Positions 9,285 to 64,000 of a stretch of 64,000 nucleotides of DNA are shown here, one piece after another. Positions within the stretch are counted from its first letter, which is position 1. The number at the start of each line of letters is the position of its first letter. Below the pieces are notes generated by a model that was not told where the DNA came from, searched no databases, and saw nothing but the letters and a program-made list of their open reading frames with translations. Made by a program: the position numbers and the translations under genes. Origin of the DNA: Isurus oxyrinchus (Eukaryota); the NCBI GenBank assembly GCA_026770705.1, contig JANJGN010000015.1, positions 35,588,001 to 35,652,000 on the forward strand. Reading direction: 5' to 3'.

Positions 9285-9822
9285 GAACAAATTTCAGGTG
9301 ATTCACAAAACAAGCAAAGATGACATGAGAAACATTGCTTTATACTGAGTTGTTATGATCTGGAATGCACTGCCTGAAGAGCGATGGAAGCAGACTCAAT
9401 GGTGACATTCAAAAGAATAAGACAAATATTTGAAGGGAAAGAATTTACAAGGCTATGGATGTTCTGTATGGATAATGATATAAAGATACCAATCACTCAC
9501 ACGGGATTGTGTAAACATGTTGTGGGTTTATTTATTTAGGTCAGGCATCTAAGAGCAGCTATACAAAGGTAGAAATCTTGAAGACATCAGCAGCAGAGCT
9601 GTGTGTGCTATGCTCTGCTCACAGGCCAAAGTGAAATTGAGACTGAATCATATGACACACTTCCCTTCTAATGATGGCATGCTGCTATCCCTTAAAGGTA
9701 TATTACAGCAATGGGGAAAGAGCAGGGCTTGGATTAATCTACCAAAGAGCCAGCACAGGCACAAAAAACCGAACAGCCTCCTTCTGTTCTCCCCCGTTCT
9801 ATAATTCTATACGATTCTACGG
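9285..9822 (+). mobile_element. CR1 LINE 3' fragment interrupted by a solo LTR
   Basis: atctggaatgcactgcctgaa (IWNALPE); ggctatgg continues as atggggaaagagcaggg across the LTR; ttctat-type tail near 9797-9820. Confidence 0.75.
9460..9710 (-). mobile_element. Solo LTR (~250 bp)
   Basis: TG..CA termini, 5-bp flanks atgga/atggg, AATAAA on minus strand, homologous to 9998-10273. Confidence 0.7.
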
Positions 9823-9997: not shown

Positions 9998-10273
9998 TGT
10001 CATGTTATCATAATGATATAATACCTTGGGCTTATTTACTGTACAAGACACAAGGCACCAATCATTCATAAGGGATTGGGTACACACGTTGTGGGTTCAT
10101 TTATTAAGAATAGGCTCAGAAGAACGATTGTACATAGGTATAAACCTTGAAGACATCAGAGTTGTGTGTGTCTGTGCTCTGCTCAAAGCAAAAGTGAAAC
10201 TAAGACTGGATCACATGACACATTTCCCTTCTAGTGATGTCATGCTGGTATCCCTTAAAGGCACATTATAACA
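9998..10273 (-). mobile_element. Solo LTR of the same family, with Penelope inserted at its edge
   Basis: tgtcatg..tataaca termini; flanks acacc (9993-9997) / acatc (11243-11247); shared core aaagtgaaa.t.agactg.atca.atgacaca.ttcccttcta.tgatg.catgctg.tatcccttaaagg. Confidence 0.7.
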
Positions 10274-10274
10274 A

Positions 10275-11230
10275 AACAAAAACAGAATTACCTGGAAAAA
10301 CTCAGCAGGTCTGGCAGCATCGGCAGAGAAGAAAAAAGTTGACGTTTCGAGTCGTCATGACCCTTCGACAGAACTTGAGTGAGTCCAAGAAAGGGATGAA
10401 ATATAAGCTGGTTTAAGGTGTGTTGGTGGGGGGAGAGAGAGAGAAGTGGAGGGGGTTGGTGTGGTTGTAGGGACAAACAAGCAGTAATAGAAGCAGATCA
10501 TCAAAAGATGGCCTAAACAACAGAACAAAAGAACACATAGGTGTTAAAGTTGGTGATATTATCTAAACGAATGTGCTAATTAAGAATGGATGGTAGGGCA
10601 CTCAAGGTATAGCTCTAGTGGGGGTGGGGGGAGCATAAAAGATTTAAAAATATTTAAAAATAATGGAAATAGGTGGGAAAAGAAAAGTATATAATTTATT
10701 GGAAAAAACAAAAGGAAGGGGGAAACAGAAAGGGGGTGGGGATGGAAGAGGGATCTCAAGACCTAAAGTTGTTGAATTCAATATTCAGTCCGGAAGGCTG
10801 TAAAGTGCCTAGTCGGAAGATGAGGTGTTGTTCCTCTAGTTTGCTTTGGGCTTCACTGGAACAATGCAGCAAGGATAGACATGTGGGCAAGAGAGCAGGG
10901 TGGAGTGTTAAAATGGCAAGCGACAGGGAGGTTTGGGTCATTCTTGCGGACAGACTGCTGGTGTTCTGTAAAGCGGTCGCCCAGTTTACGTTTGGTCTCT
11001 CCAATGTAGAGGAGACCACATTGGGAGCAACGAATGCAGTAGACTAAGTTGGGGGAAATGCAAGTGAAATGCTGCTTCACTTGAAAGGAGTGTTTGGGCC
11101 CTTGGACAGTGGGGAGAGAGGAAGTGAACGGGCAGGTGTTGCATGCTGATGCTGCCAGACCTGCTGAGTTTTTCCAGGTAATTCTGTTTTTGTTTTGGAT
11201 TTCCAGCATCCGCAGTTTTTTTGTTTTTAT
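10275..11230 (-). mobile_element. Penelope-like retroelement, 5'-truncated, with inverted terminal segment
   Basis: Minus-strand CNTCPF..NLVYCIRCSQCGLLYIGETKRKLGDRFTEH (GIY-YIG); 11144-11230 is an inverted copy of the 3' end; 13-bp TSD cacattataacaa at 10262-10274 and 11231-11243. Confidence 0.92.
10336..10376 (-). ncRNA. Minimal type I hammerhead ribozyme motif (Penelope pLTR)
   Basis: Minus strand aagtt CTGTCGA a gggtc atgac gactc GAAA c GTC aactt: stem I aagtt/aactt, stem II gggtc/gactc. Confidence 0.75.
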
Positions 11231-11564
11231 CACATTATAACAACATCCATGCCTACACCATGAACAATCAACCCCATTTGAGTCAAAACCTTAAAACACT
11301 TCTATTGTCCCCACATTTGATTTTTCTATCACTCTAATAGCCAGTCCTATCCTTCACTGTTCAGTGTCTTTACTTCCACCCTTCACAAGTGGCAATACAT
11401 TTAGGATTCCATGGTCCACACCTCCGTATCCAATCCTCCTGATCCTCACTCTTGCCAAGTGATTTTAGTCCTGTGGTTTGCAGCAATGTTTTCATTTATA
11501 ATTTTAAATCTCCCCATAAATTTAGCCCACTCTACCTCAGTAATTTCACCTAGTAACACAAATT

Positions 11565-21100: not shown

Positions 21101-21227
21101 GGCCGGAATTTGCCAGCCCCTCATGCCAATGGGATCTTCTGGTCCTGCCCATGTGAATGGAGATTTCAATGGCTCGCCAGCCCCAACACAGGGGAACCCA
21201 CCATGAGGGACATGGAAGATTCCAACC
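21101..21227. mobile_element. Short Harbinger-type MITE
   Basis: TIR-like ends ggccggaattt / agattccaacc around a 127-bp GC-rich island. Confidence 0.5.
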
Positions 21228-21734
21228 ATTCTGTTGTAGTGATTGATTTGAGGGACATGGTCTTTACCTGAAACCTTTCATTTGTTTGTTAGACAAGAGG
21301 ACTAGGCAATGCAAAACACTTTTGTGTTGCTAACATAATTACATTGGTTTCCTTGCATACAGCACCATTATGATGGTAAATAAAACATAGTTGGTTGTCT
21401 GTGCTGCCATCACACCCATCAATTCAGTATTGTCTCTGTTATTCTGTGCATTGGGTTGGGTTAAGTGGCAAATGAGAAAAGAAGGGTTGAGGCAATGAAT
21501 GAATATTCAGACTTTGAAGTTAGCATTAAAGCATTAGGGTGGGGCTAGTAGATGGTCTGTGAGATGATGCTCTGTCTGTCAACAAAGGTTAACCCAACAC
21601 CATGAAAATGCAAACAAAACTCTTGGATTAACTTCCAGAAGAACATTCAGCAGAGAAGTAATGTTAAACTTATACAGTGCTGTGGTTAGACCACACAGGG
21701 TATCATGCACAATTCCAGCCTCCATATGAAGGCA

Positions 21735-21961
21735 TAAAAACAAAAAAACTGTGGATGCTGGAAATCCAAAACAAAAACAGAATTACCTGGAAAAACTCAG
21801 CAGGTCTGGCAGCATTGGCGGAGAAGAAAAGAGTTGACGTTTCGAGTCCTCATGACCCTTCGACAGACCTAGGGTCATGAGGACTCGAAACGTCAACTCT
21901 TTTCTTCTCCGCTGATGCTGCCAGACCTGCTGAGTTTTTCCAGGTAATTCTGTTTTTGTTT
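21735..21961. mobile_element. Palindromic miniature Penelope insertion (two head-to-head pLTR ends)
   Basis: Arms 21768-21859 and 21871-21962 are reverse complements with 2 mismatches; 14-bp TSD tccatatgaaggca at 21721-21734 and 21962-21975. Confidence 0.93.
21832..21870 (-). ncRNA. Minimal hammerhead ribozyme motif
   Basis: Minus strand aggt CTGTCGA a gggtc atgag gactc GAAA c GTC aact; stem I has one mismatch. Confidence 0.65.
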
Positions 21962-22144
21962 TCCATATGAAGGCACTAGGGAATAAAGATTTACAAGGAT
22001 AATATAAGAACTGAGAGGTTACAACTATCTAGAAAGACTGCACAGACTTGGCTCTTTTCTCTAGAAGAAAGAAGACTGTGGGGTGACCTGACAGAGATCT
22101 TTACAATCATGAAGGGGTTTGATAGGGTAGACAACAGAAGAAAT

Positions 22145-22315
22145 TTTGCATTTAATGTGATAAAACATCCCAAGGCCATTCACAGGAGCAATTATCAAAC
22201 AAAATTTGACCGAACCACTTAATGGAGATAAATGGAGAGGCAAACAAAAACTCAAAGTAGTAGGGTTAAGGTGATTCTTAAAGAAGGGGAGAGGGATGGA
22301 GAGGCAGAGAGATGT
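22145..22315 (-). mobile_element. L2 LINE 3' end
   Basis: ttgcatttaatgtgataaaacatcccaaggccattcacaggagc..aaatttgac is the reverse complement of the tail at 17260-17345. Confidence 0.65.
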
Positions 22316-22363
22316 GGCCATATGCCCTCACTTAACTTTACTCTTCCTGGAACCTGTCAGTGA

Positions 22364-23345
22364 TTAACGTATTATGGGAATGCCTCCCACGTCTTCCTTC
22401 CTCCATGACGTGATCATGCTCATACTGACCTCAGCAGCCTCCTGAGGCTCCTCAGCCTCCAGATCTTCATCCTCCAATGAGCTGTCATCCTCCTCCAGTT
22501 CATCCTCAGGGAGGGGGTCACCTCTTTGCGTAGCCAGATTGTGAAGGGCACAACACACTGCGATGATGCGGGAAACCCTGTCAGGAGTGTATTGTAGTGA
22601 GTTACCTGCACGGCCCAAGCATTTGAAATGCATCTTCAGAAGTCCTTTGGTCTGCTTTATAAAGGGAGTGTGTGAAGCTGTGAGCAGTGTTGTACCTCTC
22701 CTTGGAACGACTCTGAGGGTGATGCACTGGTGTCATCAGCCAGCGTTTCACTGAGTGCCCCTTACCCCCAAACAGCCATCCCTGCAGACATAATGGCCCC
22801 TCAAAGATCTCAGGCTCTTGGGAGTGACTCAGGATGTAGGAGTCATGGTAACTCCCAGGGTACCATGCACATATGTGCAGTATGTGCTTCCAGTGATCAT
22901 ACACCAGTTGTACATTAAGGGAATAATAGCCCTTGCGGTTTATCAACATTAGGGCCTGCTGCCATGGAGGCCCTATAGCCACATGGGTGCAGTCTATTGC
23001 ACCCAGCACTCCAGGGAAGCCTGAGGTGGCGGCGAAGCCAGTGAATCTTGCTGTCTATCTTTGTCCATAGCAAACCTGACATAACGATGTGGGCCTTCCT
23101 GTAAAGGATATTTGTGACCTCCTTTATGCATCAATGTGTTATGGGCTGAAAGATGCCGCTCAGGTCCCCTGTTGATCCTTGGAAAGAACCAGAGGTCAAG
23201 AAATTGAGTTCTGTGGTCACCTTCAAAGCCACTGGCAAGGGATACCCTCCATTTGGAAACTGTAAGGATCCATAGTTTTTCCTGCCCTAAGATGTGAACA
23301 TGCCTAGGGATCTCCTCCTCCCATGCGTGTCTTGTCATCTGCCAT
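22364..23345 (-). pseudogene. Harbinger DDE transposase remnant
   Basis: LGAIDCTHVAI..INRKGYYSLNVQLVYDH..YPGSYHDSYIL..GWLFGGKG..WLMTP; FKCLGRAGNSLQYTPDRVSRIIAVCCALHNLA; acidic tail; frameshifted. Confidence 0.93.
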
Positions 23346-26492: not shown

Positions 26493-27703
26493 ATGGGGAT
26501 TGTAGCCTCCGCTGGAGGCACCTCCTCTGTGAAGGAAGAGACAGGCAGAAGGGAGAGGAGGCCATGTGTCTCTATTCAGCCTCGAGGAGAGGCGCAGGCT
26601 CAAGGAGGGCAGGATCAACAGAAAGTCCAAGGCGGAAGGGGCCACAGAAGACGCCACTCTCCCTCTGCCAGGTTTTCCAGTAGTGATGCAGCTACCTCAA
26701 TATGTCTGAGGTGCAATGCCAAAGAGGGCTCCATCTCTCAAGGGAGACAGTGATCTCCATTTGTCAGATGATTGGGCCTGACATCAGCTTCGACTGTGTG
26801 TGTGGACACCCGATGCCAGTGGCTCTGAAGGTCACAGTGGGCCTCAACTTCTATGTTTCCTGCTCTTTCCAGGGCTTGGTGGGTGATCTTTGTGGAGTCT
26901 CCCAATCAGCTGTTCACACTTGTGTCAAGCTGGTGACAGGAGCTCTGTTCAGGCATGCATTGACTTTCCTTCATTAATGTACGGACGAGGCCAGTCAGGC
27001 TGAGTGAGCCAAAGGCTTCACAGCGATTGCTGGCTTCCCCTGCATCCGGGGTGCAATCGCCTGCTCACATGTGGCCACTAAGGCGCCAGCAGGTGAGCCC
27101 GATGCCTTTGTCAACAGGAAGGGCTCCCACTCCATGAAGCTAGTGTGTGATCACAGGATGCAGATTCTGCAAGTCTGTGCAAGGTAGCCAGGCAGCTCCC
27201 ACAATGCTTACATCCTGAGACACTCCCAGGTGCCAAGGCTCTTCAGTGCTTCAGCCCAGCTGGATGGATGGCTGCTGGGTGACAAGGGCTATCTCCTCAA
27301 AAGGTGGCTTACGACTCCTCTCCGCCACCCAAGAACAGAGGCCAAGCAGCAGTACAACAGTAGTCACGCCTCCACAAGGGCTGTAGGAAAGAGAACCATT
27401 GGTCTTCTCAAGATGCGCTTCCGATGCCTGGACTGCTCAGGGGGAGCACTGCAGTACCCACCAGACCATGTCTCATTGATAGTGGTTGCATGCTGCCTTC
27501 TCCACAATCTGGCACTGGCAAGGTGGGACACAGCTGAGGAAGAGGATCCTGACGCAGCTGCACAGGCAACAGATGATGAGTCCATTAGTGAGTCCGAGGG
27601 TGAGCACTCTCAGGAGAACGCTGAGGGTATAGACACTGACCTGGGTAACCTCTAAGGAGGCAGGGATGCTCAGGATGCTTTCATCCAACCGTCCTTCAGC
27701 TAG
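26493..27703 (+). pseudogene. Harbinger DDE transposase, almost full length, inactivated
   Basis: [101 protein letters not shown]; in-frame stops; catalytic D residues changed (IAC, HNA). Confidence 0.93.
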
Positions 27704-29880: not shown

Positions 29881-31029
29881 GGACCCGGCAGACATCATGT
29901 CCCTGCCCTCGCCCGCCCCTTCTCATTGATTCCCCAGCCATCTTTCATGCTGGGCAGGCCTTAATCAGCCCGCCTGCCTGAAACCGCGGTGCACTGCCAA
30001 TCCCGGTCAGCTTCCAGAACACCGCCGCCCGCCCTTGCTGAGCCTTCATGCCAAGGGTAAAATTCTGCCTTCGGTAATGTTATACAATCTTGCTATGTGC
30101 TTTCAACAGTTTGCATCTCAGTCTGGGTGTTGCAAAACTGAGCCAGAGGAATAATGATAAAAAAACTCCATGTGTTTCAAGCTTTTTTGTTTTACTAGCG
30201 TAAATGAACGATACCATGGTAAGACAAATAAAGTTTCCAACACACTTTCATACAAGTTCTGACAGTAGAGTAACAGCAGCTTGGAAGAACTTCTCAGTCT
30301 TAAGTTCTTATACAAATCTGTGTCAAGTAGAATCTTTTCTAGGAGTTTTCATCAGGCAGCTAGATTAATAACTACAGGCACAGACTGACTGAAACTAAGA
30401 AGCTTAAAAACTCAGAGCTAGAGCTTGTGGTGATGTGTATCGTTGACAACCCAGAAGGGAAAAACAGTTAAATCTGGGAAGTAAAAGTATGGGCACAAAC
30501 TGTTCTTCCTTCTGTTCTGATCAGTACTCTTATTTTCCAGTTTTTACTGTTTTTTCCTTCTGGAAATTCATTGTAATCAATAATTACGCATCAAGATATT
30601 AGATATTTGTAAAACTTGCGCGCCAATTACTAAACAAAAGCAAGGTCACAAACTACGTAGCACAAATTTCTTTTGAGCATTTGATTCCACATGGACCTGA
30701 AAGGGTAACAAAAGAATCTCTACAGCATATTAATAGTTGGTATTATAGTATATCAGACCATAGTTATTAAGGACAAAAAGTACAGAAATGTTGCAACCAG
30801 CCTCCAATATTAAGCTGTTTCTCATGTTGTGACTGGAGCAGTTTTGTCACCTAAATATTAAGATTTAAACACGACTGAAAGGAAACTTGAAGCAGTTTTA
30901 AATTTTGCAACATAGAACAATCCACACAACTCTTCCTACTAAGAGTCAAAATCGATTGCTGCCGCAACCAATCAACAAAAATAACCTGTGGTGATCGTGT
31001 TGTTCATGTTGTTGTGTTGTTATGCTGCA

Positions 31030-31385: not shown

Positions 31386-32526
31386 CAGCTGGGCTTAATT
31401 TCTAACTCATTTGTTTCATTTTTCAAAACAATTTGTTGAGTAATATTCATGAATTCTTTGACGTTTATTCTGTGTTTTCTCATTAATCCCATGTTCATTT
31501 ATCTAGGCTTGTTGAGTATCCTGCTAAATTTCTGTATGACAGGGATCCATTGATGTGAAAGGAAAGGGCTGAGATAGCAATATGTTTAAGAAAGGCACTA
31601 AGAGACCATAGGAAGACACAGTGGGTACACGACTGGTGTCCAAAAGATGGACAAAACTGCAGCTCATTTAACATTGACTGACATCGCATGGTATTAATGG
31701 AGCAGTAAGGGCAAATTTTAATTGTTATGTTTAACATAATACACTCCTTCACGAATGATATAGTTTTGTGATGGACATTTAACAATCTGATTTGGGATTC
31801 AGAATGACTCATCTAAAACATTCCTCACAGATGTCACCATAAATAAGTTGAAGGGAAACAGCAAAATCTCCAGTAACATCTTCTCCCTCCTATTATTGCG
31901 CTCCACAAATAGAAAACACTTTTAACATTTTGAGTGATAAATATCAGGAAGGAGAGATTTTATTTGGTGTTCTCTTACTTAACACCCATTGGCCTTTACT
32001 AGGCACATTTTTATGGTGACAATGAAAACTCAGTAGGCTGCAGGAATGACACCAGATTCTACAGCCCCATGGCACCACACACTGGGTGTTCCAGCAAACT
32101 GCAACACCCACCGCACTTGCGCTTGTGAATGAGAGCAGCCTTAACAGGACAATTTGCAGGATTAGCAAGTTGACAACATGAAGGAATGAATCAGTTTTAT
32201 TTCGGCAAGGGGAGAGGAAGACTGGTTTCATAAAGCAACGTTATTGGAGACAGGAAGAAATAGGGTGCCAACTGAAAAGGTTTTGTGCACAATTTTAAAA
32301 GAACTTAAGCAGGAATGAATCTCCGCCAGAGCTGATCAGGAAGCAAACATTCTCAGATGCTGGAAATGTGAAAGAAAAGTGGAAAATGCTGAAAACACTC
32401 AGCAGGCCAGGAAACAGCTTGGGGAGGCTTTCTCTGAACTGCAAGAAGTTACAGATATGCACCATTGAAAAAAGAACATAAACCAAAGGGAGACCAGAGA
32501 AGAAGTGGACTAGTACAGCACAGACT

Positions 32527-33480
32527 TCCCTTCCCTTCCTTGACCTCTCTGTCTCAATCTCTGGTGATAGACTGTCCACCAATATCCACTACAAACCCAC
32601 CGACTCCCACAGCTACCTCGACTACAGCTCCTCACACCCCGCTTCCTGTAAGGACTCCATCCCATTCTCCCAGTTCCTTCGCCTTCGTCGCATCTGTTCC
32701 GATGATGCTACCTTCAAAAACGGTTCCTCTGACATGTCCTCCTTCTTCCTTAACCGAGGTTTTCCACCCACGGTCGTTGACAGGGCCCTCAACCGTGTCC
32801 GGCCCATCTCCCGCGCATCCGCCCTCACGCCTTCTCCTCCCTCCCAGAAACATGATAGGGTCCCCCTTGTCCTCACTTATCACCCCACCAGCCTCCGCAT
32901 TCAAAGGATCATCCTCCGCCATTTCCGCCAACTCCAGCATGATGCCACCACCAAACACATCTTCCCTTCACCCCCCTTATCGGCATTCCGTAGAGATCGC
33001 TCCCTCCGGGACACCCTGGTCCACTCCTCCATCACCCCCTACTCCTCAACCCCCTCCTATGGCACCACCCCATGCCCACGCAAAAGATGTAACACCTGCC
33101 CCTTCACTTCCTCTCTCCTCACCGTCCAAGGGCCCAAACATTCCTTTCAAGTGAAGCAGCATTTCACTTGCATTTCCCCCAACTTAGTCTACTGCATTCG
33201 TTGCTCCCAATGTGGTCTCCTCTACATTGGAGAGACCAAACGTAAACTGGGCGACCGCTTTGCAGAACACCTGCGGTCTGTCCGCAAGAATGACCCAAAC
33301 CTCCCTGTGGCTTGCCATTTTAACACTCCACCCTGCTCTCTTGCCCACATGTCTGTCCTTGGCTTACTGCATTGTTCCAGTGAAGCCCAACGCAAACTGG
33401 AGGAACAACACCTCATCTTCCGACTAGGCACCTTACAGCCTTCCGGTCTGAATATTGAATTCAATAACTTTAGGTCGTGA
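32527..33480 (+). CDS. Penelope polyprotein C-terminal part: end of RT, thumb/linker, GIY-YIG endonuclease (317 uninterrupted codons, no native start)
   Basis: SLPFLDLSV..YKPTDSHSYLDYSSSHP..SIPFSQFLRLRRICS, CPRKRCNTC, NLVYCIRC..LYIGET..RFAEH, EQHLIFRLGTLQPSGLN. Confidence 0.92.
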   Translation, partial: SLPFLDLSVSISGDRLSTNIHYKPTDSHSYLDYSSSHPASCKDSIPFSQFLRLRRICSDDATFKNGSSDMSSFFLNRGFPPTVVDRALNRVRPISRASALTPSPPSQKHDRVPLVLTYHPTSLRIQRIILRHFRQLQHDATTKHIFPSPPLSAFRRDRSLRDTLVHSSITPYSSTPSYGTTPCPRKRCNTCPFTSSLLTVQGPKHSFQVKQHFTCISPNLVYCIRCSQCGLLYIGETKRKLGDRFAEHLRSVRKNDPNLPVACHFNTPPCSLAHMSVLGLLHCSSEAQRKLEEQHLIFRLGTLQPSGLNIEFNNFRS

Positions 33481-33877
33481 GCTCCCTCCCCCATCCCCAC
33501 CCCCTTTCTGTTTCCCCCTTTTTTCCCCCTTTTTTTCCCTATAAATTTTATAGATTTTTCTTTTCCCACCTATTTCCATTATTTTTAAATATTTTAAAAT
33601 CCTTTATGCTCCCCCCACCCCCACTAGAGCTGTACCTTGAGTGCCCTACCATCCATTCTTAATTAGCACATTCGTTTAGATAATATCACCAACTTTAACT
33701 TTAACACCTATGTGTTCTTTTGTACCATTGTTACTGACATCTTTTGATGATCTGCTTCTATCACTGCTTGTTTGTCTACACAAGCACCTCTGTCTCTCTC
33801 TCTCTCTCCTTCCCCCCCCCCCCCCCCCACACACCTTAAACCAGCTTATATTTCAACTCTTTCCTGGACTCGAAATC

Positions 33878-33918
33878 AAGTTCTGTCGAAGGGTCATGAG
33901 GACTCGAAACGTCAACTC
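33878..33918 (+). ncRNA. Minimal type I hammerhead ribozyme motif
   Basis: agtt CTGTCGA a gggtc atgag gactc GAAA c GTC aact; predicted cleavage after C33913; helix III reduced to palindromic ACGT. Confidence 0.78.
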
Positions 33919-34017
33919 TTTTCTCCTCCGCCGATGCTGCCAGACCTACTGAGTTTTTCCAGGTAATTCTGTTTTTGTTTTAGATTTCCAGCATCCGCAG
34001 TTTTCTTTGTTTTCAAC

Positions 34018-37152: not shown

Positions 37153-38129
37153 AGGCTTTCATCTGCATCCCACAAATGGGATGCAAAACAGTTTCACGCC
37201 AGTCTCTGGTGGGAATAGCGACCCAACATGATGAGCGGAACCACATGTTCCTATTGTTATTCTACACTGGCAAGACACCCATTTTTCATCTCCCAACACA
37301 TTGTCCCCGCTTCCCACCATTAAACTCACCACTGGGATTAGGGTGGGGGGGGGTTCTGGAAAATTCTGACCACTGGGAAATTGATAGCAGAGATCAAAGA
37401 GCCTGGGCAGTTGATAAAGCAATATTTGCTCTGGGGCTCAGATGTTTCCACAAGGCTAATGGATTTGTGGGCTCTCAGCCAAGCCTCATTATGTATGCTT
37501 AGCTGAGAGCCCAGAAATCCATTACTCTTATCGAAACACCTGAGTATTAAAGATGTTGATGTATTGATAGCGCAAATAAAGCGATTGAGAAGACAGCCAA
37601 CATTGGTGGGAGGCTATAAGTATGCTAAGTTATTTCAAAGTGTACAGTGGCAGACTCTGTCAAAGGCTTTGGAGATATTCAGAGGACAAAGAAAGCACTC
37701 ATCAAAGCAACCAAGAGCAGGGTTCCATTGGTACGTAACAACAATATGGGAGAAACCCAGCCTGACAGGATGCAGAGAGTTCGAGGGATTTATAGAAAAT
37801 GAGTTGGTTGGCAGGCTTGTGGCAGTTCTTCCTCACCTTCCTGCCCAGCATGCAAGCTGGTGGGGGGTGGTGGGCGGGTACCCCCAAAGATGTGCAGGGG
37901 TACTTCTCACCCACCCCTCCAGATGATCTCAGGTAAGGATTGCACAGTGATTGCCTGGGAAGTGCAAACTTTCTCTGAGCAATTGCCCTGGATTGGGAAC
38001 CATCTGAAACTGTGATTTAAATCACAAACTTCAGTTGGTTCTAACTTTCTTACATCAATAGTTACCAGAAAAAGTTAGGAGAATTAAAACCCCTCTAGCT
38101 TCTGGGTAGATATTGTACAGACACATACC

Positions 38130-39790: not shown

Positions 39791-41262
39791 ATAGAGTTAT
39801 ACAGCACGGAAACAGGCCGTTTGGCCCATCATGCCAGCCATCAAGCACCTATCTATTCTAATCCCATTTTCCAGGGCTTGGTCCATAGTCCTGTATGCTG
39901 TGGTGTTTCAAATGCTCATCTAAATACATCTTAAATGTTGTGAAGGTTCCTGCTTTGATCACGCCCTCAGGCAGGGAGTTCCAGATTCCAACCACCCTCT
40001 GGGTGAAAAGTATTTTCCTTAAATCCCCTCTAAACCTCCTGCCCATTACCTTAAATCTATATCCCCTGATTATTGACACTCCCGTTAAAGGGAAATGCTT
40101 CTTCCTACCTACCCTATCTAAGTCCCTCATAATTTTGTATGCCTCTATCACGTCCCCCCTTAGCCTTCTCTGCTCTAAGGAAAACAACCCTAGCCTATCC
40201 AGTCTCTCTTCATAGCTGAAACGCTCCAGCCCAGACAATATCCTGGTGAATCTCCTCTGCACCCTCTCTACTGCAATCACATCCTTCCTATGGCATGGCG
40301 ACCAGAACTGCACACAGTACCTCCTGCTGTGGCCTAACTAGCATTTTATAGAGCTCCATCATAATCTCCCTGCTCTTATATTCTATGTCTTGGATAATAA
40401 AGGCAAGCATCCCATATGCCTTCTTAACCACCTTATCTACCTGTGCTGCTGCCTTCAGGGATCTATGGACATGTACACCAAAGTCCCTCTGACCTTCTGT
40501 ACTTCCTAAGGACCTACTATTTATTGTGTATTCCCTTGCCATATTTGTCCTCCCAAATGCATCACCTCACACTACTCAGGATTAAATTCCATTTGCCACT
40601 GCTCTGTCCATCTTACCAGCCTATCTATATCGTCCTGCAATCAAAGGCTTTCCTCCTCACTATTCACAACACCACCAATTTTCATGTCGTCTGTGAACTT
40701 ACTGATCATACCTCCTACATTCATGTCTAAATCATTAATGTACATTACAAACAGCAAGGATCCCAGCACCGATCCTTGTGGTACACCACTCATCACAGGT
40801 TTCCAATCGCAAAAACAACCTTTGACCATCACCCTCTGACTCCGGCTACCAAGCCAATTTTGGATTCAATTTGCCAAATTGCCCTGGATCCCTTAGACGC
40901 TTACCTTCTTGACCACTCCCTCATGCAGGACCTTGTCAAAAGCCTTACTAAAGTCCATGTAGACTACATCAACTACACTATCCTCATCTACATAACTACT
41001 CACCTCCTCAAAATATTCAGTCCAATTTGTTAGACATGATCTCCCCCTGACAAAGCCATGCTGACTATCCCTGATTAATCGTTGCCTCTCCAAGTGGAGA
41101 TTAATCATGTCCCTCAGAATTTTTTCCAATAGTTTCCCTACCAATGATGTTAGACTCACTGGCCTGTAATCACCTGGTTTATCCCTGCTACCCTTCTTGA
41201 ATAATGGTGCCACATGCACTGACTTCCAGTCCTCTAGCACATCTCCTGTGGCCAGAGAAGAT
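39791..41262 (-). mobile_element. CR1 LINE, 5'-truncated (RT domain to 3' tail)
   Basis: DWKSVHVAPLFKKG..YRPVSLTS, YMDFSKAFDKV, SGVPQGSVLG, SKFTDDMK, QFWSP..WNSLPE. Confidence 0.95.
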
Positions 41263-41269
41263 TTTCTCC

Positions 41270-46879: not shown

Positions 46880-49856
46880 ATGGCGGCATTTGAACCCAAG
46901 TCTCCAGGGTATTAGGCTAGGCTAGTAGTCCTGTGATATTACCACTAAGCCACCACCTCCCCTTAGATGAAGTTTTTTCTAGTGGGAGTGATACATAAGA
47001 GGTTTATGCTTAAATTGGGATTGAGCTGGTGGTGATTTAAAAGAGTTAAAAACAGATTTGGTCTTAACAAATAACAGCTGCTTAATTGCAAAATGATCAG
47101 TCTTGTTTCTTTTTTATATTTATTATATTTATTACATAACGTATCTAGGAATGATTGTTTGCCATTCATTTTCATCGTGCTGTTCTGCTACAGATTATAG
47201 GGCTATGTAGTAGAATATTGCATGAGTAATTATATATAGATTATCAAACATTTTTCTCTGAGATGCAGCCTGAATCGGTCCAGTTTCAACAGATTTGCTC
47301 AAGCCCACATTGCAAGTTAATCCATTTGCTCTGAAAAAACAATATCCTTTCATCGCTAGCTGTTTTGGATGCAAAATGTCTTCAAATGTAGTCTTACAGT
47401 AATACTCGGCTATTACTAAATTTGAACACTGCGTCAATGTCCAAGGTTAAAAGGGATCCTGATTCAGTGGCATTTCACATGAGAATAAAAATGACACAAA
47501 ATGGCACCTTGGTGCAATATTAATTCCTGTACTGAGGTTAAGGTTCTATCAGAACTAGGGAATGACAACACCTGGCTCGCACGTAATGTTGTCAACTTTA
47601 ATTGAACCTGCAGTTGTTGCCACATGACTTTGTGCTTCCAACTGCACCCTTCAGAGAAAAAAACAATTCGGACCAGTGCTCTTATTTTCCAGTTTTTACT
47701 GCTAATCCATTTTAAGGTATTCAAGACCAGTTCGGACCAGAGTTCTTATTTACTGATTTTTCACTCTGGGTGCCATTGGTCAACGGACACCTCCATTCCT
47801 GCAGTGCCCCACCTAACCACACTAATTGGAAAATGATCAGAACCTTCACTGTCTGATTGGACAATTCTTAACTGTCAGTCTTTTGTTGCCATGCTCAATA
47901 TCGTTGTAACTGATAAACAAAAGAGTTCAGAGAAAATTTGGAAAACGCTATTTTTAATGCCACTATGATTTTTCTCCTGGGCTTCTCACAGCAATTCCTT
48001 GCTGATTAATCTTTAATTTGTGAAAAATCCAAGGCAATGCCAAAATGTTGCCGACTCTACTCACATGTGAATCCTGAACCCGAGAAACTCAATTCTTACT
48101 TGCTGCTTTCTTCTGTCTAAAATCCTGTGGCCCAAGTGTTTGAAAGGGCTGTTCTTGATTGATGAATAAATCCTAACTTAGAACACCAAGGTGTGATAGT
48201 ACCTGCAAATTGCAAGATAATCTCATTAAAGGGAACGTAGATTTAAACATGATATGTGACTCTTTAGACAGACATGATGCACAGATAAAGCCCCTTGAAT
48301 AGAAAGGAAAATTGTACCCCCTTGATCTATACCGTACCATACTTGATATTAATGTACTTAATGCTGCAATTGGGTAAAATATGAAAGATTATTTCTATCT
48401 ACAATATATCATCTCCGTCATGATGTGCCGAGAAAAACACAAGCAGAGCACTCAGTAGTAAAGAATGAAACAAATTGAGTTGTGATTAAGGGCTGTGCTA
48501 TGTTTGCCAAAATTACTTATCTGAAATATTGCATGTCTAAGCTTTCAATGATATAATGCAAAATGTTTCTGGTAATTTGAATGGGGGCTGAAAAGCTCAA
48601 ATACAAATCGTCCAGGATCCTTTTTTCTCTAGAACTTATTAAAAGCAGATTACTTCATTATCCTTTTCTGATTGCCTTCAGGCTAAGTACTGTGCTGTTT
48701 GTCCAGTCCTCAAGCAGTGATGTTTTGCAAATAAATAGTGTTGGAAAGGATTTGATTCCTTTGTGGACAGTATATTCATTAAAGTGCTAGTGTGATGAAA
48801 GGACAGAGATCACTGGTTGGAGACAAAACCAGAAGCATTATTGCTGGTGGAGCTGCCTGCTCAATGTACTCTGGGTATTTGACATCTCACTGATCTCTCC
48901 CCTTTGTAACGACCTTTATACATCAAAAGCTGTGTGGAATTTACTGATAAGTTTGCTCAGCTAAGCACCAGAGAAGAATTTGTGTGTACCCGTGGGGTCT
49001 AGGGATATTATTATTAGAGGAGATTAATGGAAGATTACACTGTGTTGGTGTGCACTTTTATAAGTTGGCCTTGGCTCTCTGTACTACAGCTGCAAATTAA
49101 TATTTGTTGCATGCTTGCATGTAAAATTCTGGGTAAATGCAGGTATTTGCCCAGATCGAATATTTTATTGATACTAAGTTTCACGTGCTTTTTGCATTAG
49201 TCCAGGCTCCAGAGTTTAATTTCCAGTGATGAATTGGTGATAGACACTCGTTTGCTCTCTTCGCCCTCAGCAGGGCCATCTCCAACTTTTTGGTCTTATT
49301 TTTCCACAGCTGGGCATGAGGATTCCGTTCACGCATGTTTGCAACTTGCCTTTTAAGGAAAGGACAGTTGGTGTTGACTGTGTGCTTTACTGTAAATAAA
49401 ACTAATACACAATTTTGCTCCTGATTGAATCCGCTGTTGGTTTCCGTTGGGCTGCTCGCTGATGCTGATTGCAGCATTCGCAGTTATCCTCGAGAGGTTA
49501 GAGATGATTCAGCCATTATGATAGTGACACTCATCATTGGATTTAGGGGAGCTGCCATAGGAAACTGCAATGAGGAATTGTGGCCACCTCAGTGTGTAAA
49601 GGTAAACAGTAGCTCATTCGGTAATAGTTAAGGTGAAGGAGAGAGCCTAAGTGAAGGTAAGGATGAGACATTGAATAAAAAGTAAATAGGTAGTAAATAA
49701 AAAAATTGTATCAGCATTTATAAATGATGGTGGAAGTGTTGCAGGCAAGTCAGTGTGTATTGGTGGTCCTAAGCCTGGATAAATGGGGAGGGTTAGTAGC
49801 AGGAAGGGCATCTGGGTGTAAAACCTTCTGCCAAATCAAAAAATTATGGTTGATAT

Positions 49857-54333: not shown

Positions 54334-55178
54334 CAGAATCACACAGTGCAGAAGAGGCCCTTCAGCCCATTGAGTCTGCACCAACACGTGGGAAACACCT
54401 GACCTACCTACCTAATCCCATTTACCAGCACTTGGCCCATAACCTTGAATGTGATGACGTACCAAGTGCTCATCCAGGTACTTTTTAAAGGATGTGAGGC
54501 ACCCCTCCTGCATCACCCTCCCTGGCAGCGCATTCCAGTCTGTCACCACCCTCTGGGTAAAAAAGTTTTTCCTCACATCTCCCCTAAACCTCCTGCCCCT
54601 TACCTTGAACTTGTGTCCCCTCGTGACTGACCCTTCAATGAAGGGGAACAGCTGTTCCCTATCCACCTTGTCCATGCCCCTCATAATCTTGTACACCTCG
54701 ATCAGGTCGCCCCTCAGTCTTCTCTGCTCCAACAAAAACAACCCAAGTCTATCCAATCTCTCTTCATAACTTAAATGTTTCATCCCAGGCAACATCCTGG
54801 TGAATCTCCTCTGCACCCCCTCCAGTGCAATCACATCCTTCCTATAATGTGGCGACCAGAACTGCATACAGTACTCCAGCTGTGGCCTCACCAATGTTCT
54901 ATACAACTCCTTCATGACCTCCGTACTTTTGTAACCTATGCCTCGATTAATAAAGGCACATGTTCCATATGCCTTTTTCACCATCCCACTTACATGCCTC
55001 TCCACCTTCAGAGATCTATGGACACACACACTAAGGTCCCTTTGTTCCTAAGAACTTCCTAGTGCCATGCAATTCATTGAATACTTCCTTGTCAAATTAC
55101 TCCTTCCAAAGTGTATCACCTCACACTTTTCAGGGTTAAATTCCATCTGCCACTTATCTGCCCATTTGACCATCCCGT

Positions 55179-56426
55179 CTATATCTTCCTGTAGTCCAAG
55201 ACACTCAACCTCACTGTTAACCACCCGGCCAATGTTTGTGTCATCTGAAAACTTACTAATCCTACCCACATATCCACTAATCCCACATAGTCATCAATGT
55301 CGTTTATATAAATGACGAATAATAGGGGATCCAGCACAGATCCCTGTGGTACACCACTGGACACTGACTTCCAGTCACTAAAGCATCCTTCTGTCATCAC
55401 TCTCTGTCTCCTACAACTAAGCCAATTTTCAATCCACCTTATCAAATTACCCTGTATCCCATGCGTATTTGCCTTCCTTATCAGCCTCCCATGTGGGATC
55501 TTGTCACAGGCTTTGTTGAAATCCATATAAATTACATCAACTGCACGACCCTCATCTACACACCTGGTCACCTCCTCAAAAAATTCAATCAAATTTGTTA
55601 GACATGACCTCCCTCTGACCAAGCCGTGCTGACTATCCCTGATCAAACCTTGCCTCTCCAAGTAGAGATAGATTCTCTCTTTGAGAATTTTCTCCAATAG
55701 TTTCCCTACCACTGAAGTGAGACTCACTGGTCTGTCGTTCCTTGGCTTATCTCTACAACTTTTCTTAAATAGAGGAACCACATTAGCTGTTCTCCAGTCC
55801 TCTGGCACCTCCCCCATGGCCAGAGAGGAATTAAAAATTTGGGTCAGAGCCCCTGCGTTCTCGTCCCTTGCCTCCCTCAGCAGTCTGGGACACAAATCAT
55901 CCGGACCTGGAGATTTGTCCACTTTTAAGCCTGCCAACACCTCCAATACCTTGTCACTCCCTATATCAATTTGCTCAAGAACCTCACAGTCTCTCTCCCC
56001 GAGTTCCATACCTTCATCCTCATTCTCTTGGGTGAAGACGGATGTGAAGCATTTGTTCAACACTCTACTGATGTCCTCTGGCTCCACCCATAGATTGCCC
56101 CCTTGGTCCCTAATGGGCCCTACTCTTTCCCTGGTTACCCTCTTCCCTTTGATATACTTATAGAATATCTTGGTATTTTCCCTACTTTTACCAGCCTGAG
56201 CTTTCTCATATCCCCTCTTTGCTCTCCTAATTGCTTTCTTAAGCTCCACCCTGCGCTGTCTGGACTCCACTAATTCCTCCGCTGATTGGCTCCCCTTGTA
56301 CCTGCTAAAAGCCTCTCTTTTCCTTCTCATCGTATCCTGAATATCTCTGGTCATCAATGGTTCTCTAGGCTTGTTACTCCTTCCTATCACCCTAGAGGGA
56401 ACATGTTGAGCCTGTACCCTCCCCAT
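55179..56426 (-). pseudogene. CR1 ORF2 reverse transcriptase, longest open segment (415 aa)
   Basis: KSPGPDDLCPRLL, DWRTANVVPLFKK, SQHGLVRGRSCLTNL, YMDFNKACDKI, SGVPQGSVLDPLLFVIYIND; frameshift before FSDD. Confidence 0.92.
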
Positions 56427-57329
56427 TTCCTACTTTAACGCTCCCCACTGCTCTTCTGTATGTTTCTTCCCACAAGTAGCTGTGCCCAGTCTACCTTGGC
56501 CTGATCCTGCCTTATTTTATTAAAATCCGCTGTCCCGCAATCCAAAACATTTTTTTGCAACTTGTCTATTTCTTTGTCCATAACAAGCTTAAATAGTACC
56601 ATGTTGTGGTCGCTATCACTAAAAAGCTCCCCCACCACCACCTCAGCCACCGGTCTGGGTTAATTCCCCAGAATTAAGTCCAGCAATGCACCGTCCCTTG
56701 TTGGACCCTCTACATATTCTCCTGTACACATTTCAAGAAATCCACTCCATCCAAGCCTTTAACACTATGTCTATCCCAATTAATGTTGGGAAAGTTGAAA
56801 TCACCTAATATAATTACCCTATTGTTATTGTTTTTACCTCCACAAATTGTGCACATATTTGCTCCTCAATTTCCCGCTGACTATCAGGGGGTCTATAATA
56901 AACACCTAATAATGTGGCTGCCCCATTTTTATTCCTAAGCTCTACCCACAAAGCTTCATTCGATGCCCCCTCCAAGATATCATCTCTCCTTACTGCAGTA
57001 ACTGACTCCTTAACTAATAATGCAATGCGTCCTCCTCTTTTACTCCCACCCCTGTATCGCCTGAAGATTCTGTAACCCAGAATATTGAGCTGCCAATCCT
57101 GCTCCTCCCCCTGTAATGGTTACTATATCACAAATCCACCTGTTAATCCTCACCTTTGATTCATCCGTTTTACCTGTAATACTCCAGGCATTAAAGAGGC
57201 CATCCAGCCTTGCCTTACTCCTTTGAAACCTAATGCAGCTGTGGTCCCTCTGACTTGATTGTTTTACTATATTATGATGTGTCCCTATTCTGCTTACATT
57301 CTGTGTCCCCTCCCCCTGCCGAATTAATT

Positions 57330-63035: not shown

Positions 63036-63709
63036 ACCCCTCCAATCTATCCTCATAGCTACAGTTCTTGATCCCTAGAATTATTCTTGTGAATTTCCTC
63101 TGTACTATCTCCAATGTCTTCACATCCTTCCTCAAGTGTGGCGCTTGGAACTGGACGCAGTACTCCAAATGAGGCCTAACTAGTGTTTTATACAAGTTCA
63201 ACATGACCTCCTTATTCTTGTACTCAATGCCCCTATTAATAAAGCCTAAGCTATATGCATTATTAACTGCTCTCTCAACATGCCCTGCCATCTTCAAAGC
63301 TCTATGTACGTTCACACTGAGGTTCCTCTCTTCCTGTACCTCCTTTAGAGTTTCTTCCTTTACTTTATACTTTCACCATATTCTTCTTGCCAAAATGGAT
63401 CACCTCACACTTCTCTGCATTGAACTTCATCTGCCACTTGTCTGTCCAATCCAGCAACATGTCTTTGTCCTTTTGAAGTTCAAGACTATCCCCATCACAG
63501 TTGACAACATTTCCAATCTTCGTATCATCTGCAAATTTTGAAATCATGCCCTACACACCATAGCCTAGGTCATTAATATATATGAGGAAGAGCAAGGGTC
63601 CCAACACTGACCCCTGGTGAACTTCACTACAAGCCTTTCTCCAATCTGAAAAATAACCATTTATCACTATTCTCTGTTTCCTGTCACTCAGCCAATTTCT
63701 TATCCACAT
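63035..63709 (-). mobile_element. CR1 ORF2 fragment
   Basis: ISKFADDTKIG..WTDKWQMKFNAEKCEVIHFG; LYKTLVRPHLEYCVQF. Confidence 0.92.
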
Positions 63710-64000
63710 TGTAAAGAACATATTTTTATATTTTGGACTGTGGCTTTAAGATTGGACTGTGGCTATAAAAGCTACCTTGGCTGCAGCTTAAAAGAGATGT
63801 TCAATGGAGCAGGAAGAAGGAAATCTACAATGTTGCTATCCTGGAACAATGTGTGCCAGGTTGGACAGAATGGTGCTGGAGAGGAGACCTGGTTTAAGAG
63901 GGAACTGCCGAGTGATGGCATTTTGATTGACTCCTGACCAAGTGGACAGGGTCTGTGTGAGGATAGTGTGATGGATCAGCTCCTAGCCTGAAAAGAGGAA
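63710..64000 (+). mobile_element. Probable LTR start interrupting the CR1 (runs off window)
   Basis: CR1 homology stops abruptly at tgtaaaga; repeated ttggactgtggct and tataaaa follow. Confidence 0.45.

Follow-up and report, generated by a model that had tools for sequence, protein, structure and literature searches.

The 227-bp insert at positions 21735-21961 is real but ordinary. It is the stump of a very abundant Penelope-like element, in which two short 5'-truncated element ends are joined head to head, and it is the smallest form of a Penelope insertion layout already published (PMC8557442 and PMC3846280). The insert was likely dead on arrival. It was analysed together with two related copies, here called copy B and copy C, in a window of 64,000 nucleotides, by which is meant the whole stretch of DNA presented. 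These repeats may resemble shark DNA.

The inverted arms at 21768-21859 and 21871-21962, originally put at about 92 bp, are 92 nt each and 98% complementary, with a spacer of 11 nt (21860-21870) that contains the head-to-head junction; the final 3 nt of this spacer may be filler or, if one substitution at 21868 is allowed, element sequence. The two arm mismatches (21816/21914 and 21817/21913) fall in a single CpG that, with copy B as reference, was changed from C to T once in each arm, which agrees with the claim of two CpG-type mismatches, one per arm. The insert had been described as a palindrome of 227 bp; this length is correct, but the palindrome is limited to 21768-21962, and an extension of 33-34 bp (21735-21767/8), referred to below as the tail, is found on the left side only. 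This minus-strand tail matches the end of copy B and the short arm of copy C. The insert is asymmetric, with a left arm of 136 bp including the tail (21735-21870, element sense on the minus strand, 94.8% to copy B 33879-34013) and a right arm of 91 bp without the tail (21871-21961, plus strand, aligning to copy B 33890-33981). As had been noted, there is no coding sequence, in that no stop-to-stop frame of at least 150 aa overlaps the insert. The predicted fold of the insert has an energy of -186.4 kcal/mol (z = -25.6), values that are typical of any long inverted repeat. The arms differ from each other at 2/92 positions, compared to 1.7-1.8 expected from the flank divergence of 1.9-2.0% to the sister organism B (see below), and the age of the insert appears to be about that of the split from this organism.

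The direct repeat at 21721-21734 and 21962-21975 is 14 bp long and perfect, as first reported, and the chance of a 14-mer repeat within 5 nt of each boundary is about 4.5e-7 if equal base use is assumed. Old CR1 fragments on the plus strand were found to the left (21649-21734) and, as a continuation, to the right (21962-22160) of the insert by alignment to younger CR1 copies. The two flanks, aligned separately, converged on one position of CR1, with z values of 4.3 (left flank) and 12.8 (right flank) against CR1a, and of 5.9 (left flank) and a non-significant -0.2 (right flank) against CR1c. The best reading of the 14-mer is therefore a target-site duplication, made by an insertion into an old CR1 as originally proposed. 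The younger CR1-type copies that served as host-repeat references are located at 39847-41264, 54402-56429 and 63041-63710, one of them with an RVT_1 match (E = 4.2e-19). No empty site of the insert was seen among the 15 contig joints listed of 490 (see below), where one of low depth could be hidden.

Copy B (32482-34013, plus strand) is a 5'-truncated coding copy whose element part begins near 32520 (an approximate position) and which ends at 34013 with the same tail as the insert. Its open frame (32482-33480, 332 aa) contains a GIY-YIG domain according to Pfam (E = 2.3e-4, 21.8 bits, slightly under the cutoff of 22.6) and has an Atlas score of 0.97 to GIY-YIG/HTH_animal clusters; a CxxC between GIY and YIG and two later His motifs correspond to the CCHH motif of the endonuclease. 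A CX4CxxC linker is present at residue 198. In PMC8557442 a CX2-5CxxC linker between the reverse transcriptase (RT) and the endonuclease (EN) is described for Neptune and Nematis and as absent from Penelope/Poseidon. Judged from its sequence, the family of the insert thus appears to have a linker of the Neptune/Nematis type, a feature that by itself does not separate Neptune from Nematis. The domain search gave no RT match in copy B, as expected if the copy is truncated below the RT core, and copy B has no convincing target duplication (best 8 bp) and no clear young inverted arm. An older relative of the element end, about 72% identical with the tail included, lies inverted just upstream (32340-32430), and the insertion of copy B may have been into an older member of the family or next to one.

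The insert arms match the end of copy B at 89/92 nt and, over the same 92 nt, differ from copy B at 3 and from copy C at 4 positions. This supports the proposed Penelope origin with an element end at either side of the insert, and by the features tested these ends would belong to an endonuclease-positive (EN+) Penelope-like element with a GIY-YIG domain.

Copy C (10262-11243) is flanked by a 13-bp duplication (10262-10274 and 11231-11243) and has the same inverted, one-tailed layout as the insert with a different junction, being composed of a tail-less arm of 872 bp (10273-11144, minus strand) and a tailed arm of 86 bp (11145-11230, plus strand). The two arms are non-nested: one includes coding sequence and lacks the tail, and the other carries the tail and lacks coding sequence. 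Since neither contains the other, they cannot have arisen by copying of one arm from the other, which supports that at least some insertions need two separately templated syntheses, as judged from this single case (n = 1). An inverted copy, a one-sided tail and a target duplication occur together in two of the three young copies in the window, the insert and copy C, and copy B has the tail only. Two 79%-identical copies of a repeat of about 220 bp were found at 9488-9711 and 10057-10274. Copy C lies where the latter of these ends. In the former, the duplicated target of copy C is matched once, as in a paralogous empty site.

The original prediction also held that both ends carry hammerheads and that the arms join at the ribozyme. 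The usual hammerhead core consensus has an A at core position 6. All three copies in the window that keep the first core strand (33883-33913 in copy B, 10341-10371 in copy C and 21836-21866 in the insert) have a U at this position, and we therefore regard the U as a family trait; no occurrence of this variant was found in the literature searched. A scan of the window with a relaxed minimal-hammerhead descriptor, in which core position 6 was left free and the minimal-motif traits followed PMC4209133, gave two matches, one each in copies B and C (stem II of 5 bp, stem I of 4-5 bp), and none in the 227-bp insert. By this descriptor the family has a minimal type I hammerhead in its terminal repeat. 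The claim of two hammerhead-bearing ends goes too far for the insert, whose arms hold remnants but in neither case a complete motif (0/2). The left arm has a candidate minimal hammerhead-like remnant at 21836-21866 (minus strand) with the core, a 5-bp stem II, GAAA and the GUC triplet, in which the junction has broken stem I. In the right arm, which begins only at stem II, the first core strand is missing, so that 21871-21894 contains only the part from stem II to the GUC triplet. The arms join at the 5' edge of the motif and not at the predicted cut site, which the left and right arm pass by 35 and 24 nt, and both templates were probably uncleaved RNA because the arms extend beyond this site.

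Folding the motif within a hairpin transcript of the insert would cost 37.8 kcal/mol, and isolated motif segments folded no better than shuffled sequences (z = 0.05 to 1.1). No Rfam model matched at gathering score anywhere in the window, and no hammerhead was among the seven E-value matches around the insert. Those to microRNA and plastid models, being below gathering score, were rejected as generic hairpin matches.

Two short and older inverted repeats, at 30451-30563 and 37437-37544 (arms of 39 and 48 nt, 85%), gave no convincing alignment to the Penelope-like family (z at most 3.5), and part of the former recurs at 47667-47701. Decayed DDE_Tnp_4 transposase fragments are present at 22602-23054 and 27188-27655.

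Parts of the stretch were found in 20 of the 24 public sequencing runs listed, which come from two organisms. Four of the 24 were compared, as contigs only: X1 from organism A, which may be the very sample that the window comes from, and X5, X6 and X9 from organism B and three studies. No RNA run is among the listed holders of the stretch, which has no bearing on expression. The summed contig depth was 1-20 million on the arms compared to about 8-20 on the unique left flank, a ratio of 3e5 to 2e6 times that is not a copy number and that marks the family of the insert as very abundant. Loose contig ends with unrelated flanks were found at 21734, the tailed end, in 399, 244, 331 and 280 contigs of the four runs. 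Among the 24 of 2179 rows listed, loose ends at 21767/8 occurred in all four runs and those at 21962 in three of the four. Both end points of the insert are family-wide. Further piles of loose ends with higher agreement at 21743 and 21906 suggest sister subfamilies that differ in the tail and in the motif region, the pile at 21743, a third one beside those above, looking like a subfamily with another tail. The repeat at 22300-22500 was multi-copy in all four runs. A degenerate family motif had no matches in viral contigs and none in metagenome contigs.

The four runs contained 490 joints, of which 15 were listed; one row with arms given as on opposite strands was set aside and the remaining 14 head-to-head rows were examined. 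The arm offsets in these 14 joints were 5-55 nt: five were near-symmetric (5-10 nt, four of them seen in X1 only), one was 21 nt and eight were 48-55 nt, the last eight each occurring in two to four runs. This clustering is partly due to ascertainment, since the reference cannot show arms that continue for more than 40 nt beyond 21870. For 7/8 of the joints with offsets of 48-55 nt one arm ends at the motif 5' edge, as does the left arm of the insert, and the other near the stop of the short arm of copy C; a microhomology of 3-4 nt connects these two stops. A junction 3 nt shorter than that of the insert, at the same place, was found in each of the four runs (28, 8, 1 and 18 contigs; 1.67, 0.30, 0.06 and 0.99% of the depth), and the letter marking the insert's own junction (21868) made up at most 3.8, 0.8, 2.6 and 2.2% of the depth, in contigs too short to give flanks.

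Both junctions of the insert with its flanks were reproduced by contigs of X1 (left junction, 21200-21758, 24 letters into the insert; right junction, 21942-22208, 20 letters, 0 differences). Flank contigs of organism B enter the tail in X6 (to 21756, 22 letters) and X5 (to 21739, 5 letters), and the one in X9 stops short. Given that an empty site would read differently where these contigs enter the tail, the insert is likely common to organism B. These entries of 5-24 letters are under the 31-letter bar used for bridging. The 32 contig pieces listed, out of about 203,000, include none that covers the stretch from end to end, and likewise none listed spans the whole insert.

We think it rather probable that the insert was made in one integration event, with both nicked target strands priming reverse transcription on uncleaved RNA, and such priming from both target nicks, which the original prediction had named as one of two routes, is the best reading of the insert. 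The element endonuclease would nick the two strands 14 nt apart, and each target 3' end would prime cDNA at one of two internal start sites on uncleaved RNA, with either two separate RNAs as templates or a single RNA that supplies both of its terminal repeats. The cDNAs would stop early, after about 135 and 91 nt, and end-joining repair would link them. In the insert the left arm starts at the tailed end of the family and the right arm at the end point 33-34 nt further in, and both arms, having passed the predicted ribozyme cut site, stop at the motif 5' edge. According to PMC11167929, both strands are nicked and extended by a purified Poseidon protein, a predicted dimer that begins copying at two internal sites, one at each boundary of the tail, and needs no ribozyme cleavage; this biochemistry is that of a Poseidon element, whereas the family of the insert has a linker of the Neptune/Nematis type. 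Priming from both nicks is supported by copy C, which shows the same end pairing with non-nested arms (one other copy, n = 1), and by end points that are family-wide with junctions that vary among the listed joints. The origin of inverted one-tailed Penelope-like insertions is called undefined in PMC8557442. An abundant family with polymorphic sites inside the arms (such as 21780 and 21783) is suited to a genomic test of two templates against copying from one cDNA.

That latter route, the fold-back of a single cDNA, is missing from the original prediction, as is the one-sided tail, a known signature of Penelope-like families. A tail-primed cDNA would stall at the motif 5' edge, fold on a short inverted match and copy itself to the inner end point, at which it would either be cut or become linked to the other end of the target. 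We consider this less likely, though it deserves serious consideration, since the right arm of the insert is nested wholly in the left one with the arm stops 8-11 nt apart, as a fold-back would give, and this counts against priming from both nicks. The same is true of the 3-nt-shorter junction, which has the fold-back geometry and recurs in four runs, but its share varies 16-fold among the three runs of organism B, and four of the five near-symmetric joints listed occur in X1 only. Joints of this kind could also be library chimeras formed at inverted repeats (PMC10908179). The family sequence at the motif edge can form a mini-hairpin of 3 bp, which is marginal (-0.1 kcal/mol, z = 0.37). Arkhipova et al. 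interpret such junction palindromes as the result of self-priming (PMC3846280), but a fold-back cannot yield copy C, and it requires an extra step to end the copy exactly at the inner end point of the family. Loss of the middle of a longer inverted insertion by a later deletion would leave a similar structure. Longer inverted insertions exist, as shown by copy C, and deletions at microhomologies are reported for Penelope copies in PMC3846280; the insert junction, however, is without microhomology and many further short head-to-head joints lie within the same 200 bp, which makes this origin very improbable.

The second route of the original prediction was that the 227-bp palindrome is itself transcribed and re-inserted whole as a non-autonomous, retrozyme-like unit. 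This claim is not supported by the data, and we hold it to be quite improbable, given the lack of a complete motif, the opposite instead of tandem orientation, the penalty of 37.8 kcal/mol and the varied junctions in the family. An equally doubtful variant is that a subset of mini-palindromes with the junction at the motif 5' edge is re-inserted by the Penelope enzyme from two inward-facing start sites, as a MITE-like hairpin-RNA retroelement with hundreds of copies. For a mobile unit speaks that the 3-nt-shorter junction reaches 119-687 times the flank depth in three runs, that joints from 21865-7 to 21912-8 recur in two to four runs and that one contig of organism B crosses the insert centre (89 nt, 8 differences, one gap); non-autonomous Penelope derivatives are also reported (PMC8557442 and bioRxiv 10.64898/2026.07.22.740005). 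The recurrent joints lie, however, on microhomologies of 3-4 nt, so that their independent origin suffices as an explanation, and the marker letter at 21868 makes up at most 0.8-3.8% of the depth, a bound that still permits 52-1427 flank units. The animal retrozymes reported in the latter source are, moreover, tandem direct repeats. An assembly fold-back artefact, finally, is extremely improbable. In its favour are the lack of a listed contig across the entire insert and flank contigs that end below the bridging bar. Against it, the CR1 flanks are unique and continuous and bear a 14-bp duplication, the tail is one-sided, each arm has one CpG change, X1 contigs carry both junctions (with X1 possibly the window's own sample) and contigs of organism B lead out of the flank into the tail.

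The insert can be compared with several known systems. Animal non-LTR retrozymes, defined as tandem direct repeats in which two or more units follow one another and every unit has a complete hammerhead (bioRxiv 10.64898/2026.07.22.740005), are like the insert short, non-coding, Penelope-derived and hammerhead-related. Unlike them, the insert is one inverted pair with no complete motif in either arm, and it was rejected as a non-LTR retrozyme on this definition. An ancient palindromic vertebrate Penelope remnant, considered as a precedent, was not confirmed by a literature search, and no such mini-palindromes in this animal group appeared in the titles and abstract openings of the papers listed. 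Paired minimal hammerheads on opposite strands, 100-700 bp apart, have been described in Schistosoma mansoni (Cervera and de la Pena 2014, PMC4209133). The insert resembles these in having two motif-bearing ends on opposite strands, and copies B and C share with the S. mansoni motifs the bulged base before stem II, the G-C closing pair and the palindromic stem III positions; the differences are that the join of the insert cuts both motifs and that the family has U at core position 6.

As in Poseidon_Ac (PAc; Frangieh et al. 2024, PMC11167929), the family has, downstream of the motif, two end points separated by the length of the tail, and copies that cross the cut site. The end points of the family lie 67 and about 100 nt beyond the cut, compared to 85-92 nt for one PAc site. 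PAc is of the Poseidon clade, whereas the insert's family, known here from its sequence, has the CX2-5CxxC linker of Neptune/Nematis. The closest correspondence is with the typical EN+ Penelope-like layout, an inverted 5'-truncated copy with a one-sided tail of 30-40 bp (Craig et al. 2021, PMC8557442 Fig. 2), of which Pen2a_Av, with an inverted layout, a 31-bp tail and a 9-bp duplication, is one example (Arkhipova et al. 2013, PMC3846280). The insert differs from such canonical insertions in that its arms are reduced to 91 and 136 bp and contain no coding sequence, and its duplication of 14 bp, like that of 13 bp in copy C, is longer than the 8-10 bp of the A. vaga examples. It shares with them the head-to-head inverted ends, the tail of 33-34 bp at one end, the short duplication and the motif located inside the terminal repeat.
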